64,000 bases of DNA from a phage. The notes beneath the pieces are model-generated. The model saw only the letters and a program-made list of their open reading frames with translations, did no database searches and had not been told where the DNA came from. A program made the position numbers and the translations under genes. The stretch is taken from assembly GCA_018015315.1 (NCBI GenBank), contig GCA_018015315.1_3629.1; one strand, written 5' to 3'. Below are positions 11,473 through 19,134 of the stretch, in pieces; the first letter of the stretch is position 1, and the number at the start of each line of letters is the position of its first letter.

Positions 11473-13029
11473 TTAATTTTCCATGTTGGATATGGAATTA
11501 TCTCTGGTTGATGACATCTTAGAAGTGCCGTTGCCAGCGGATCCTGCAGCCATTCCATCGCCAGCCCTACTGATGTCCTGGCCCAAGAGCTTCATTAGCT
11601 CTTCCTGATCCATGTCCTCGTCAAATCTTTCATCAAACCCACCTACTTCAAGAATCTTATTAATTACTGCAGGAGTTTTTGGCAAGTAACCTACAGCACC
11701 GATCCTCTGGACAAACTTGGAGAAGCTCTCCATGTCCACCTCTTCAATCAGGCCAGGTTTCAGTTTAGGCATATCATCATCTTCAAGGATGATACCATTC
11801 AATGCCAGAAGCTGTGGAATAAGATCTTTATTGAAGGCCTCAGTGATAATATCTATATCACGCTGAACAAAATGACCATGGATAGACTGTTTTGACTCAG
11901 ACAGAGAGAAGGATCCGACGTTATCGTTACCGAGGTTAATAAAGCCAGCACCGAAACGGTCAAGAATCGCCTTCTTACGGGCATCAATCAAATCTTTAGT
12001 TGAATACTGCTTGCCCATACCGTCAACCCCCTTCAGGGTCATGGAGTAAAGCTCTTTACCAGACTTATCTCTATCAGACGGAAGTATAAAGAAACTTTGC
12101 TCCCCACTATGGGCGTTTGCTGCGTCAAGCATAAGATCTGCAACCATTCTCCCTTCCATTGAATTCGGGTCAATACTGGCCTTGTTCAAAATATTGGAAG
12201 GAATTTTCAGCTCAAGCACACCACCAAGGTCTTTGGAACAGCCAACAACCTCAAGGTTTTCAATCAAAACTTTCTCACGGAAAGATCTGTAGCAACCTAT
12301 CATCGGTGACACACCTGCAGGGTTAGATTCTGTTCCTGACAGAGTCATGAGCATAAGCTTTTTAGCAGGGATGAAAATTTCAGGCTCATTAAAGCCTTTT
12401 GAAGGCATTGCAGCGAGAGGACCAGCCCAGCGTGCATTCTGCGTGTTTAGAAATGCATTAGGTGATTGATAAATACCTGTCAGTGTTCTACTATTCTTGT
12501 CAAAGACAAACGGCTCTGATCTGGACAAACTGGCCTGTGGTCGGAACGCAATCTTATCAATAAGAAGCATCCCGGCGTATTTACCTTCTTTCTCTCTGCG
12601 GTATACTTTCTCAAACAGTGAAAAACCATACTCGTTAAAGGTAGCTGCGCTTCTTGCAATATCTCGAAGAGTTTGTTGGTTTGCCAAATTACGCAAAGAA
12701 TACTCTATAAGCTCGGCAGCTTTCTTAGAGTCTTCACTTTTAACATTATAAAGGATCTTAAAATCATTAAATGCTTTCGTGATGAAAACATATTTTGTAT
12801 CTAAGGCAGTAGCAACTGTGGAATCACATTTCATAGTCTCCACTGTGGCAATCAGTTGAGGCCAACGCAATTCCTCAACCATCATAGATTGTGATTCTGC
12901 CATAATTTGGGAAAGTGCGCCAGAACCGATCTCACTCATACGAACATTATGAGTTGGTGCGCCTGCGTTCCCAGATTTATTCACAGTTTTGGCTGTGGCG
13001 TTGTGTTTCCTGCGGTTCTTTTTGGACAC
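11473..13029 (-). CDS. portal protein
   Basis: 518 aa ORF directly downstream of terminase large subunit; acidic C-terminus. Confidence 0.6.
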   Translation of the reverse strand: MSKKNRRKHNATAKTVNKSGNAGAPTHNVRMSEIGSGALSQIMAESQSMMVEELRWPQLIATVETMKCDSTVATALDTKYVFITKAFNDFKILYNVKSEDSKKAAELIEYSLRNLANQQTLRDIARSAATFNEYGFSLFEKVYRREKEGKYAGMLLIDKIAFRPQASLSRSEPFVFDKNSRTLTGIYQSPNAFLNTQNARWAGPLAAMPSKGFNEPEIFIPAKKLMLMTLSGTESNPAGVSPMIGCYRSFREKVLIENLEVVGCSKDLGGVLELKIPSNILNKASIDPNSMEGRMVADLMLDAANAHSGEQSFFILPSDRDKSGKELYSMTLKGVDGMGKQYSTKDLIDARKKAILDRFGAGFINLGNDNVGSFSLSESKQSIHGHFVQRDIDIITEAFNKDLIPQLLALNGIILEDDDMPKLKPGLIEEVDMESFSKFVQRIGAVGYLPKTPAVINKILEVGGFDERFDEDMDQEELMKLLGQDISRAGDGMAAGSAGNGTSKMSSTRDNSISNMEN

Positions 13030-15782: not shown

Positions 15783-15859
15783 TGGTCTCCACGGAGTGAT
15801 TCGAACACTCGACCTCCTGATCCCAAATCAGGCGCTCTACCAAGCTGAGCTACGCGGAG
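15783..15859 (-). tRNA. tRNA-Pro (anticodon TGG)
   Basis: cloverleaf by eye: 7-bp acceptor stem (one G-T), anticodon loop TTTGGGA, T-loop TTCGAAT, encoded CCA. Confidence 0.8.
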
Positions 15860-15870
15860 TATTTACTATT

Positions 15871-15945
15871 TGGTGGCCCTGGGTGGAATTGAACCACCGT
15901 CTGGCGATTATGAGTCGCTTGCTTGAACCTTCCAGCTACAGGGCC
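15871..15945 (-). tRNA. tRNA-Met (anticodon CAT; initiator, elongator or Ile-lysidine not distinguishable)
   Basis: perfect 7-bp acceptor GGCCCTG/CAGGGCC, loop CTCATAA, T-loop TTCAATT, encoded CCA. Confidence 0.8.
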
Positions 15946-15946
15946 T

Positions 15947-16022
15947 TGGTGCTGATGGCAGGACTTGAACCTGCAACATATTGATTACAAATCAATTGCA
16001 CTACCAATTGTGCTACATCAGC
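15947..16022 (-). tRNA. tRNA-Thr (anticodon TGT)
   Basis: acceptor GCTGATG/CATCAGC, anticodon loop TTTGTAA, T-loop TTCAAGT, encoded CCA. Confidence 0.8.
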
Positions 16023-16029
16023 AAAAAGG

Positions 16030-16126
16030 TGCTAGGTGATGGAATCGAACCATCTATGTATTCAACGACTACCTCGTCTATTTTCAGGATTAAAAATCCT
16101 CGCCCTTGCCAAAGGGCTTACCTAGC
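16030..16126 (-). tRNA. atypical type-II tRNA-like gene (Leu-like scaffold, apparent anticodon TTT)
   Basis: perfect acceptor GCTAGGT/ACCTAGC, D-arm, perfect T-arm GATGG-TTCGATT-CCATC, discriminator A; anticodon hairpin AGGATTTTTAATCCT; about 30-nt variable region with GACGA/TCGTT hairpin; CCA not encoded. Confidence 0.45.
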
Positions 16127-16224
16127 TCAGTATGTTGACCATGTTGCTAGTCGGCGATGACGACTGTAACATTTGATAATCCGGTTCTGCTTCCGGCTTT
16201 CGCTTAATTACAAGGTCAACAATG

Positions 16225-16315
16225 TGGCAGAGGATAATGGAATCGAACCATCATCGAGTCATCCTCAACGGGACGGTTTTCAAGACCGCTTGAGCACCAT
16301 TGCTCCCTACCCTCT
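16225..16315 (-). tRNA. tRNA-Ser (anticodon TGA)
   Basis: type-II: acceptor AGAGGGT/ATCCTCT, anticodon loop CTTGAAA, about 20-nt variable arm, discriminator G, encoded CCA. Confidence 0.7.
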
Positions 16316-16432
16316 TTTATTATAAACAATACTGATAATGACACTGATTTTCGAGCAGTTAGTGACTAGTATAAACGACGATAAATACCAATGCCATTAT
16401 CTGTATGATTTATGCATCTAAAAATATAAATT

Positions 16433-16519
16433 TGGTGGGGAGTGGTGGAGTCGAACCACCCGAGTCGCAATGACAATAGATTTACAGTCTACACCGCTAC
16501 CTCTACGGGATAACTCCCC
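16433..16519 (-). tRNA. tRNA-Tyr (anticodon GTA)
   Basis: type-II: acceptor GGGGAGT/ACTCCCC, anticodon loop CTGTAAA, long variable arm, discriminator A, encoded CCA. Confidence 0.8.
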
Positions 16520-16523
16520 AATT

Positions 16524-16598
16524 TGGCACCCCGTACTGGACTCGAACCAGTGTCAACGGCTTAGAAGGCCGCTGCTTTATCCACTAAGCTAACAGGGC
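16524..16598 (-). tRNA. tRNA-Arg (anticodon TCT)
   Basis: anticodon stem-loop GCGGC-CTTCTAA-GCCGT, T-arm ACTGG-TTCGAGT-CCAGT, acceptor with two G-T pairs, encoded CCA. Confidence 0.75.
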
Positions 16599-16694
16599 AC
16601 TGGGTGGCTTTCTTTTACACCTTAGCCGCCAGAAAAGGTGGGAGACCATGTTTACAATATTACACTGTTAAGCAAAGTTTGTCAAGAAAATATT

Positions 16695-17033
16695 TTAGCT
16701 ATTGCTAACAGGCTGTATTTCTGTGGTGAATGGCATAAAAGGTGCTGGTTTTTCAGCCTCTTCTACTACCACCTCTTCCTCTTCACCAAACATCTCATCA
16801 TATTCTTCCTGCATTCGGTCTGCCTTATCAAGAACATACTCTGCAATGCTTTGACGAATATTTTGTTTGGTTTTCGGGTCCAACATCAGCTCTCTTAGAA
16901 CTTTGTGAGCTTCTGGAACCATCGCTATAAAAGATTCCTTCATATCAAGGATGTTCTTCTCTAGCTGAATGGCGTTGGACTCCTCTTTCAGAGGTCTGCC
17001 TCTACGGCGACGCTTTTTAGTTGTATCCGCCAT
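16695..17033 (-). CDS. hypothetical protein (basic N-terminus, acidic C-terminus)
   Basis: start moved to internal ATG (MADTTKKRRRRGRP) with GGAGG RBS. Confidence 0.4.
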   Translation of the reverse strand: MADTTKKRRRRGRPLKEESNAIQLEKNILDMKESFIAMVPEAHKVLRELMLDPKTKQNIRQSIAEYVLDKADRMQEEYDEMFGEEEEVVVEEAEKPAPFMPFTTEIQPVSNS

Positions 17034-17377
17034 GTTTCCTCCATTATCACGTGATAGGTGGATTTTATCATAGCAAATACTGATTGTCAAGTTCGCCGCA
17101 GGGTGGTATTCCCTGCGACTTGTCCAGCGTCCTGGACCAGCAAGACCCAACAAGTGGGTTACCAGAGCCCATTACCGCGCTTTGGCTAGACCTTATTACA
17201 GGTTGGCTGGGGTCACATCGTCATGTGCTGGCTGCCCCTACCATTTTAAGTGTGGTGCACTATCAAGCTCTCTAAGGGGAACTCAGCCTTCTCCGAACCC
17301 TGTTTCAAAGCATCCGGAGATAAAGCCATCAAATTCATCTTTAAATTGGATATTCATCATGATACACGAAAACAACC

Positions 17378-17620
17378 TCATTGTAAAGCACAAATAAATA
17401 AAACATACTTAATTTGTTTGTTATCAGGCTCAGGGTAGAAGTAGAAGATCTTGCTATCACCGATCTGAACACCACCATCCCAACAGCATAGCCCATAACC
17501 CGTATTCATACAAGCTAAGTCGTTGGCAAAATCTATTGCATCATCCAGTGCACGAAATTCACCTTCATCTTCTAAATAATCCTCATTCATGGAACGAAAA
17601 ACGAGCTTAACCTTAAACAT
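17378..17620 (-). CDS. hypothetical protein
   Basis: 80 aa ORF in minus-strand gene run. Confidence 0.4.
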   Translation of the reverse strand: MFKVKLVFRSMNEDYLEDEGEFRALDDAIDFANDLACMNTGYGLCCWDGGVQIGDSKIFYFYPEPDNKQIKYVLFICALQ

Positions 17621-17696
17621 AGCATTACCTGTAGACCTCGTAAGTTAAAATTGTATCACATCATATTGCAGATCTTATCAGGTAACATTATTTTTG

Positions 17697-17885
17697 TCAA
17701 CAGATTCCGGCCTTATCTCGCCTGTCTGTGTATTCTTTAATCGCAACCTCATCTGCATTAGTGACCAGGTCTTCAAAGTAACTCTCAAGCTCCTCGTCAA
17801 TGTCAGGAGACCAGCCCTTTTTCCTGTCAGTGTGAATCGCAGACTTGTTAAACTTAGTACAGTTCTTTGCTACCGGATTGTTCAT
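17697..17885 (-). CDS. hypothetical protein
   Basis: internal ATG (MNNPVAKN) with GAGGGG RBS after stop of upstream gene. Confidence 0.3.
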   Translation of the reverse strand: MNNPVAKNCTKFNKSAIHTDRKKGWSPDIDEELESYFEDLVTNADEVAIKEYTDRRDKAGIC

Positions 17886-18474: not shown

Positions 18475-18978
18475 AGCTGCCTCCTCTTCAAGTTATAGAA
18501 AAACTCACTGTATCACTTTGTAACGAGCTTTTCTATCAAACTGGTGCGATTGCATTACCTGGTATAGTTTATATAGCTGTGGAGCGATTTAGGGGCCTTC
18601 TTGTCAGTTTCCACACATAAACTTCATCCAAGCTCGCGCGGGAGACTCTCAACCGACTCCTTACGGCGCTGGCAAGCTTTCGTCGGTGGTCCACATCAGT
18701 GCTCGGCCTTTGGCCTGCGCTATCGCTTCGCTCCCACACATGTTAACAGACCTGCATGTATGCACTTCTGTTATTGTGTGCACCAAGGAGGCCCGGCATC
18801 TCGCCCATCGTAGGCGAGTGCCAATGAAGGGCCGACACTACCTATAGTAAGTAATAATTTTAAAACATGGTACTTAGGATCTAGTATATTCTACATAAGT
18901 TAAGTATATGTACTTAGTACCATAAGTACTAGATCTTTTATTTTTTATTATTTAGTTATTTTAGTTATATTCTTTATG

Positions 18979-19059
18979 TGTCCGTATCACGGACAGTTAG
19001 TGTCCGTATTACGGGCAGATGTGTCCGCGTGACGGACAGTAGTGTCCGTATCACGGACA
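18979..19059. repeat. four phased 17-bp palindromic sites TGTCCGT-nnn-ACGGACA
   Basis: sites at 18979-18995, 19001-19017, 19022-19038, 19043-19059; centre spacing 22/21/21 bp; flanked by AT-rich DNA. Confidence 0.8.
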
Positions 19060-19134
19060 GTTACTGACCTCTGTTCCAGAGCGAACATAAAACATACGAA
19101 TCCTTATAGTACAGATATTTAAGTTTTTACTGGT

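Follow-up and report, generated by a model that had tools for sequence, protein, structure and literature searches.

What is encoded between two minus-strand genes at positions 17034-17377 of the phage DNA analysed here? This DNA, referred to as the window, is a 64,000-nucleotide (nt) stretch of GenBank assembly GCA_018015315.1 (contig GCA_018015315.1_3629.1). The gap had been singled out as rich in G and C and free of any minus-strand open reading frame (ORF) of 60 codons or more, and the original prediction named a small RNA or a long structured leader as candidates for it. Sequence comparison gives the following answer. The central part of the gap, a unit of approximately 192 nt on the minus strand (17091-17282), can be assigned with high confidence to a real, strand-specific structured RNA family, and this family, carried by T4 and rV5-type phages, appears to be undescribed. 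By its sequence the window is that of an rV5-like coliphage (Vequintavirus). Escherichia phage rV5 was 99.4% identical over the region around the gap, and the full stretch was present in 119 GenBank phage records.

Composition and coding content of the gap

The G+C content of 17091-17282 was 0.552, against 0.428 for the whole window, which places it at the 99.7th percentile of 192-nt windows. Over 17034-17377 the value was 0.474. Minus-strand ORFs lying wholly within approximately 17034-17393 were limited to three of 36, 34 and 30 codons. Overlapping plus-strand ORFs of 62-71 codons were present, as had been noted. In close relatives the core of the unit is interrupted by indels of 1, 1 and 4 bases, so that no frame across it survives on either strand. 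A small protein gene over the RNA unit was looked for and no conserved frame was found, given these non-triplet indels and an in-frame stop in phage RB3. The RNA part of the gap is thus neither unconserved spacer nor a conserved protein gene. The earlier description is confirmed, with the refinement that 17034-17377 is composite: besides the RNA unit it takes in a possible small ORF, a promoter and the untranslated 5' region of the next gene.

Architecture of the RNA unit

The unit is supported by conservation, G+C content, indels and covariation in its core, and its 5' boundary is the point at which conservation with L052-type contigs sets in. It runs from the G that follows the stop codon of the possible small ORF to the base before the -35 hexamer of promoter P74 (both described below). 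A 5' module, GUUCCCCUUAGAGAGCUUGAUAGUGCACCACACUUAAAAUGGUA (17239-17282), is near-identical in rV5-type and L052-type contigs, the sequence just upstream being unrelated. It is followed by a hairpin, H0 (17209-17238; GGGG/CCCC around CACAU-GACG-AUGUG), that abuts a three-way-junction core (17163-17211). H0 and the junction form the centre of the unit (17163-17238), a module of approximately 80 nt. Three further hairpins are predicted on its 3' side (17097-17158), namely CCCA-CUUGU-UGGG, GUCCAG-GACG-CUGGAC and CGCAGGG-AAUACCA-CCCUGCG, and the first two have counterparts in L052-type contigs. The covariance model R1 matched the window exactly once, at the core (63.3 bits, E 6e-20), and neither a second core nor a repeat of the 5' module was found in the window.

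Stem 1 closes the junction by pairing 17204-17208 with 17171 and 17166-17169, leaving G17170 bulged; across lineages it comprises 4-5 bp with a bulged G after the first pair. Stem 2 pairs 17200-17203 with 17190-17193 (4 bp, loop GUAAUA in the window) and has the consensus ACCU/AGGU with a GNRA-like GURAWA loop. Stem 3 pairs 17185-17186 with 17177-17178 and consists of 2-3 bp with a six-base loop. The junction strands C-N-A and GGUAA are nearly invariant, as are the loop bases. A hairpin was present 5' of stem 1 in every lineage examined. Its sequence varies and its pairing is kept, with GGAAC/GUUCC around CUACG-GAC-GCGUAG in L052-type contigs and GGGAA/UUCCC or AAAGC/GCUUU in T4-likes.

Covariation was scored in 37 distinct cores. 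Stem 1 pairs 6-44, 7-43 and 8-41 were 97-100% paired, with one unpaired cell, in 8-41. The inner pairs of this stem were CG in 25, GC in 10 and AU in 2; CG in 26, GC in 6, UA in 3, AU in 1 and GU in 1; and AU in 18, UA in 12, CG in 3 and UG in 3. Stem 3 pair 27-34 was CG in 33 cores and UA in 4 and was broken in none. The covariation score was 0.346, against 0.102 for shuffles (0 of 500 as high), and did not exceed 0.08 with partners slid. A set of 32 distinct metagenome sequences gave 0.327 against 0.103 (0 of 500 as high), in an alignment that leans towards the structure because it was fitted to the model. The two sets were drawn from separate collections. Stem 2 had been fixed by the first search patterns; its variants, GCCU/AGGC and ACCA-GUAA-UGGU with a true GNRA tetraloop, came from a relaxed scan and the metagenome set. 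Covariation in two alignments therefore supports all three core helices, and with them the original proposal of a structured RNA. G-U pairs occurred at several positions and are compatible with the transcribed strand only. Taken together, compensatory changes and G-U pairs indicate that the folded molecule is a single strand with the polarity of transcription.

Among the rV5-likes, otherwise 96-99% identical, nearly all variation was located in two segments, the loop of stem 3 and the linker that follows GGUAAU. Pairing between these two variable segments was considered and discarded, as no complementarity was seen by inspection. CsrA-type GGA sites were also discarded; the GGA count in the rV5 unit, taken by eye only, was approximately that expected by chance.

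Occurrence in other phages

The 43-base stretch 17168-17210 matched approximately 465 T4-like records at 91-93% identity. Core-matching GenBank phage records numbered 584 in the first search and 1136 with the T4-type sequence, the latter belonging to Tequatro-, Mosig-, Gelderland-, Teguna-, Jiaoda-, Moon- and Karamvirus. T4-likes carry the module in the unannotated stretch that separates denV, ipIII or Ip4 from vs.8, and in T4 itself the core is at 64855-64903. Pattern scans of IMG/VR and metagenomes added Vequintavirus-like contigs (approximately 140 kb), Klebsiella-phage-like contigs of approximately 47 kb, a 360-kb jumbo-phage contig (L009), a Vibrio phage (L104) and several unplaced contigs. 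By sequence and predicted fold it is the same module that recurs in several unrelated phage lineages infecting enterobacteria and Vibrio.

Two annotation points emerged from these records. In the T4 RefSeq entry (NC_000866) the vs.8 coding sequence, of 219 aa, starts within the RNA motif at 64855-64912 (2356-2413 in locus L239). Other T4-likes annotate vs.8 as 180 aa with a start downstream of the motif, and RB3 has its in-frame stop in the extension; the T4 vs.8 start codon is probably mis-assigned. Separately, 18 GenBank records labelled 'Campylobacter phage' (MG0656xx) were 96-99% identical to E. coli rV5-like phages over 16600-17700, and their host label is doubtful.

Searches against known RNAs and genomes

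A scan of Rfam, which had been named as a check on the original prediction, identified no known family. Rfam 15 (4227 models) gave no match in 17034-17377 at gathering thresholds. At E<=10 the region 16600-17700 gave two chance matches, both outside the RNA unit, and at E<=1 nothing was found at the motif in contigs L009, L004, L052, L056 and L049. Rfam tRNA matches were confined to annotated tRNAs. A degenerate tRNA or tmRNA was rejected, as ARAGORN in tRNA, mitochondrial and tmRNA modes returned nothing in the module from six lineages.

The 344-nt span had no match in E. coli genomes, and 185,579 representative genomes of bacteria and archaea yielded nothing beyond chance matches to a fairly strict core pattern, which distant mimics may escape. 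Host origin or mimicry of a host RNA was accordingly set aside, no counterpart having been found in E. coli or the representative genomes scanned. Mimicry of the rRNA 530 loop or of RNase P had been suspected from the shared sequences GCGGUAAU and GUGCGGUAAG; R1 gave chance scores only, the best match to the rrnH operon and rnpB with filters off being 5.9 bits (E 3.3). Neither the core sequence nor a description of it was found in the literature on T4 vs.8/denV, on rV5/Vequintavirus or in phage structured-RNA surveys, one of which, a viral survey of 10,006 candidates, may list it unnamed.

Position relative to tRNA arrays and promoters

Outside the T4-likes the module shared the strand of the tRNA genes and was found in their arrays or close to them. 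It lay approximately 40-60 nt after a tRNA in three lineages (L009/L233, L223 and L238), between tRNAs in L143, L136 and L215, and 175-300 nt after a tRNA in L127 and L200. In the ~47-kb class, the L052-type contigs and the window it lay 250-600 nt upstream of a tRNA array, and in L209 and Vibrio phage L104 approximately 1.2 kb downstream of tRNA genes. Its orientation was always co-directional with downstream genes and transcription.

The L052, L055 and L208 types carry a sequence, TTGACA-17-TATACT (11 of 12 consensus positions), placed for a start at the first base conserved with rV5. This predicted start corresponds to position 17282 of the window, the 5' boundary of the RNA unit. One lineage has, in a suitable place, a predicted near-consensus promoter from which transcripts would begin at the first conserved base. 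The corresponding 39 nt of rV5-type phages are promoter-free and belong to the last part of the small ORF, so the RNA must here come by read-through, either from P75 or from a promoter-like site at 17387-17359. The latter, TTTACA-17-TATCAT (17359-17387, minus strand; 10 of 12 positions), was found by consensus scan alone, is unannotated in rV5 and is not kept in L055. It could drive the RNA in rV5-type phages.

Several features were recorded around the motif in other phages. In the ~47-kb contigs L111, L118, L134, L139, L145, L209 and L235, repeated long hairpins occur up to 600 nt either side of the core. These lie in the long untranslated leader of the tRNA array and have arms CACAACAGGUAAGAGCAYUG ... 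CAGUGCUCUUUCCGUUGUGG; the 3' arm opens with a boxA-like UGCUCUU[UA], a likeness to rrn-type antitermination leaders. Homing endonuclease genes are common near tRNA arrays carrying the motif. A group I intron (Rfam, 81.4 bits) lies at 3115-3418 of L052, approximately 3 kb downstream of the motif. On the minus strand of L009, at approximately 12650-12910 and approximately 200 nt past the motif, there is an end resembling a T-arm and acceptor (CUUGGUUCGAAUCCAAGACUUCCUACCA) that recalls the 3' end of T4 rnaC. ARAGORN called no tRNA there by default; at a relaxed threshold a single weak 'tRNA-???' call fell in this stretch. Of the six lineages only the L009 fragment gave such a call, and by fragment coordinates it lies downstream of the core.

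A patchy and exchangeable module

The features downstream of the module differ by lineage, being vs.8, ORF74, tRNAs or no ORF for hundreds of bases. A leader tied to a homologous downstream gene was rejected, as ORF74 and vs.8 are unrelated and the window and the non-T4 loci have no vs.8 homologue. Mosigvirus G2469 lacks the module and retains vs.8 together with, from GGUAAAUACAG onward, the proximal part of its leader. Exactly at the slot occupied by H0 and the junction in other T4-likes it has a T4-early-promoter-like cassette (GTTTAC...TAGTAT; L244 650-705), which suggests cassette-style exchange upstream of vs.8.

The motif was not found within 1.5 kb of ORF74 homologues in Seunavirus (two phages), Mydovirus or Certrevirus (one representative each). 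In these representatives of other Vequintavirinae genera the ORF74 homologues are embedded in tRNA arrays (L240-L243: PVP-SE1, KpS8, LNA4 and P7_Pc). Because the distribution is patchy, with sister genera lacking the motif and a cassette swap in G2469, the module was inferred to be a transferable accessory RNA cassette that is discrete, mobile and dispensable.

Proposed interpretation

The favoured reading is as follows. The module would ride in or beside phage tRNA arrays as a transferable accessory cassette. Its transcription would be part of that of the tRNA operon, starting at a promoter of its own in some lineages and arising by read-through in the window phage, and the RNases that mature tRNAs would then release it as a stable RNA. 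Once free, this RNA would act in trans: a conserved partner, of host or phage origin, would recognise the invariant bases of its junction and loops, and a tRNA-related counter-defence role is possible. It would not serve any single downstream gene as a dedicated regulator. Confidence in these parts is uneven. A stable trans-acting RNA is a tentative proposal from context, credited with somewhat less than an even chance, whereas the structured family itself is close to secure. The account that blends the two is the best explanation as a whole, and its chances are put at about even.

A more specific version holds that an RNA of tRNA size in tRNA slots is a decoy or inhibitor of a host factor directed against tRNAs or the translation machinery. 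The target would be, for example, an anticodon nuclease or another RNA-directed defence, and the fast-changing stem 3 loop would set specificity. This is speculative and rather unlikely as formulated. A precedent exists in pseudo-ToxI of the rV5-like Pectobacterium phage PhiTE, a fast-evolving non-coding RNA locus with an accessory counter-defence role (PMC3475682). The likeness lies in an RNA locus of an rV5-like phage with rapid evolution (PMC3475682). Pseudo-ToxI is built of tandem 36-nt repeats imitating a host antitoxin. The motif described here, in contrast, occurs once and appears non-repetitive: R1 places one core in the window, and this is a 49-nt junction without a repeat-unit layout. 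Similarity to type III antitoxins was sought as well, and no host-encoded array was matched in E. coli or in the 185,579 genomes with the strict pattern. By analogy, PhiTE shows that rV5-like phages use RNA for counter-defence; it links the present motif to no particular system.

Two groups of known phage RNAs offer comparisons for the favoured reading. T4 species 1 and 2 RNAs (rnaC and rnaD) are co-transcribed with tRNAs and processed from the same precursors. Like the present module, they are phage-encoded structured RNAs that are not tRNAs, have no known function and lie in a tRNA array. Unlike it, they show no match in sequence or structure, and the T4 copy of the present motif is approximately 6 kb away, upstream of vs.8. 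T4 rnaC also has a tRNA-like 3' end made of a T-arm and an acceptor, and no such end exists in the present module. R1 had no match in rnaC or rnaD, and a relation to them was rejected. ROOL and GOLLD are orphan structured RNAs of 500-800 nt that form multimeric assemblies and are often found in phages or prophages beside tRNA genes, their function being unknown. The present module differs in size, at approximately 80 nt in a unit of approximately 190 nt, and neither Rfam model matched it.

Several observations weigh against the favoured reading. The family has been recognised here from sequence comparison and context, and the counter-defence idea is based on the distribution pattern and genomic context only. 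The thermodynamic signal was weak, at z = -1.64 over the 192-nt unit and z = -2.37 over the 344-nt span, and the minimum-energy fold missed stem 1; with thermodynamic signals this modest, the structural case rests on the comparative evidence. No U-tract follows any of the three 3' hairpins and no intrinsic terminator follows the RNA unit, so a discrete RNA would need processing. In the T4-likes the module has one constant, leader-like position: the stop codon of denV, ipIII or Ip4 precedes it and the vs.8 start follows it. Some Karamvirus-type phages have two tandem copies of the module, an arrangement typical also of riboswitches.

Alternative explanations

The last two observations also count towards the strongest alternative, in which the junction is a cis-acting sensor or leader, either a riboswitch-like aptamer or a protein-binding operator, that controls transcription or translation of what lies downstream (vs.8 in the T4-likes; here ORF74 and the tRNAs). 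The layout is aptamer-like, with a closing helix, two hairpins and invariant junction bases, and in this it resembles purine-type riboswitch aptamers, including the possible tandem arrangement. In the T4-likes the module ends 10-25 nt before the vs.8 ribosome-binding site, and in all lineages its orientation is that of the downstream genes. The covariation-supported fold expected of a riboswitch is present; this shows a conserved fold and not ligand binding. Unlike the purine-type aptamers, the helices here are much shorter and there is no Rfam match. No one gene family is common downstream across lineages, several of which have tRNAs or long ORF-free DNA next, and no expression platform was found in the form of a U-tract terminator, a covarying terminator or an anti-ribosome-binding-site element. 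In the window a separate promoter, P74, stands between the RNA and ORF74, and in G2469 the vs.8 leader is present without the module. A cis sensor is considered unlikely on this balance, and remains the best placed of the alternatives.

A little less likely still is a co-transcriptional signal, that is, an antitermination element of the nut, put or rrn-leader kind for untranslated tRNA operons, or an RNase entry site that splits mRNA from tRNA precursors. The module lies at the head of or inside untranslated tRNA arrays, and in L052-type contigs it is directly downstream of a strong predicted promoter. As in lambda nut and rrn boxA-boxB, it would be a promoter-proximal RNA signal ahead of long operons, with a GNRA-like hairpin loop as in boxB, and in the ~47-kb class it has boxA-like neighbours (GCUCUU[UA] in the long flanking hairpins). 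The arginine-rich N-terminus of the downstream ORF74 protein would also fit. However, boxA-like sequences beside the motif are confined to the ~47-kb class. None was found near it in T4-likes, and a search for boxA (GCUCUUUAACAA-like, up to 3 mismatches) or GCUCUU[UA] from -600 to +900 nt of the core found none in the window, L052 or L009. A three-way junction also distinguishes the module from the lambda and rrn signals, and no Rfam model, put and nut included, showed similarity to it. Many tRNA-bearing relatives lack the motif. ORF74 homologues occur without it in the arrays of Seunavirus, Mydovirus and Certrevirus, so there is no obligate pair, and an N-like ORF74 protein acting with a nut-like RNA was rejected on this ground.

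A new self-cleaving ribozyme that processes the polycistronic transcript is very unlikely. Self-cleaving ribozymes are common in phage DNA, some adjoining phage tRNAs, and a compact junction with near-invariant unpaired bases would suit one, but no hammerhead, twister, pistol, hatchet or HDV-like model of Rfam matched at E<=10. By inspection, the junction strands CNA/GGUAA are unlike the hammerhead core (CUGANGA...GAAA), the helices are very short and no cleavage-site signature is evident.

The least probable alternative, that the locus acts not as RNA but as a small coding region with spacer or as a DNA site (origin, recombination or homing), can point to the 32-codon ORF over the ORF75 stop codon, to the T4 RefSeq annotation of the motif as the first vs.8 codons and to the homing endonuclease genes near motif-bearing arrays, but that ORF is confined to 17283-17381, outside the RNA unit, and the core indels, the RB3 stop in the extended vs.8 frame, the compensatory changes and G-U pairs of a transcribed-strand fold and the constant co-directional orientation all speak against it.

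Neighbouring genes and other features of the window

All genes around the gap are on the minus strand, in the order ORF75 homologue, gap, ORF74 homologue and seven tRNA genes. The ORF75 homologue (17378-17620; 80 aa; phrog_5676) is the upstream gene and is annotated in rV5. A possible 32-codon ORF (17283-17381, minus strand) follows, its ATG overlapping the ORF75-homologue TGA (ATGA). It is annotated in some relatives and matched phrog_6828 (E 5.5e-9). Among the rV5-likes its DNA is invariant save for the last codon, which is GGC, GTC, AGC or GAC; in L055-type contigs it is cut to 8 codons (MKDEFDGF*), followed by the promoter. The stretch 17283-17381 may encode a short peptide, which qualifies a non-coding reading of the gap for its upstream third (17283-17377).

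The gene downstream, the ORF74 homologue (16695-17033; 112 aa; phrog_3330; N-terminal KKRRRRGRP), starts with ATG at 17033 and has GGAGG at 17042-17038 in its 5' untranslated leader (17034-17061, minus strand). Its sigma-70 promoter P74 (17062-17090, minus strand), TTGACA-17-TAAAAT, matches 11 of 12 consensus positions, has a TG and is annotated in the rV5 record. The mechanical ORF list gave a 152-aa TTG-started version of ORF74 reaching 17153, which was rejected as an over-extension; it crosses the annotated P74 promoter and is annotated in no relative. ORF74 is a conserved protein resident in tRNA arrays, with an arginine-rich N-terminus and an acidic C-terminus, and no informative Pfam, NCBIfam or PDB match was found for it.

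The seven-gene tRNA array (15783-16598, minus strand; ARAGORN and Rfam) begins approximately 570 nt downstream of the core. It includes a 99-nt tRNA-like gene (16028-16126, minus strand) called 'tRNA-???' by ARAGORN, with a four-base anticodon (atcc). This gene scored 37.5 bits with Rfam and is kept in relatives, where it is annotated 'tRNA-OTHER'.

Two further places in the window were recorded. The minus-strand stretch 18540-18860 is GC-rich, with a peak of 0.594 at 18632-18823 that is the maximum of the window. rV5 annotates just the 56-aa ORF78 there. In contrast to the RNA motif, the stretch had matches in the 119 rV5-like records alone, other phage families giving none. It is probably the 'first' of the two GC-rich gaps counted in the original prediction. 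At 18975-19065 (minus strand) an inverted repeat, CTGTCCGT-NNNN-ACGGACAC, occurs four times at close spacing, directly downstream of the rV5-annotated gene for a GntR-like regulator (ORF79), with the look of an operator array.

Significance

T4 and rV5-type phages have been heavily studied, and rV5-type phages are widely used, yet this RNA fold has gone unannotated in both. At a minimum, the finding yields a new RNA family for annotation pipelines, a corrected vs.8 start and the removal of spurious ORF calls across the motif in rV5-like genomes. Were the decoy version true, the module would be a horizontally exchanged RNA counter-defence element of T4-like, rV5-like, jumbo and ~47-kb Klebsiella-phage-like lineages. 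More generally, strong conservation across unrelated lytic phages, together with the tie to tRNA arrays, implies that these phages meet one and the same molecular partner in their enterobacterial hosts. Once found, this partner could partly explain why phages carry tRNA regions, and an accessory or counter-defence function exerted by RNA could come to light as well.

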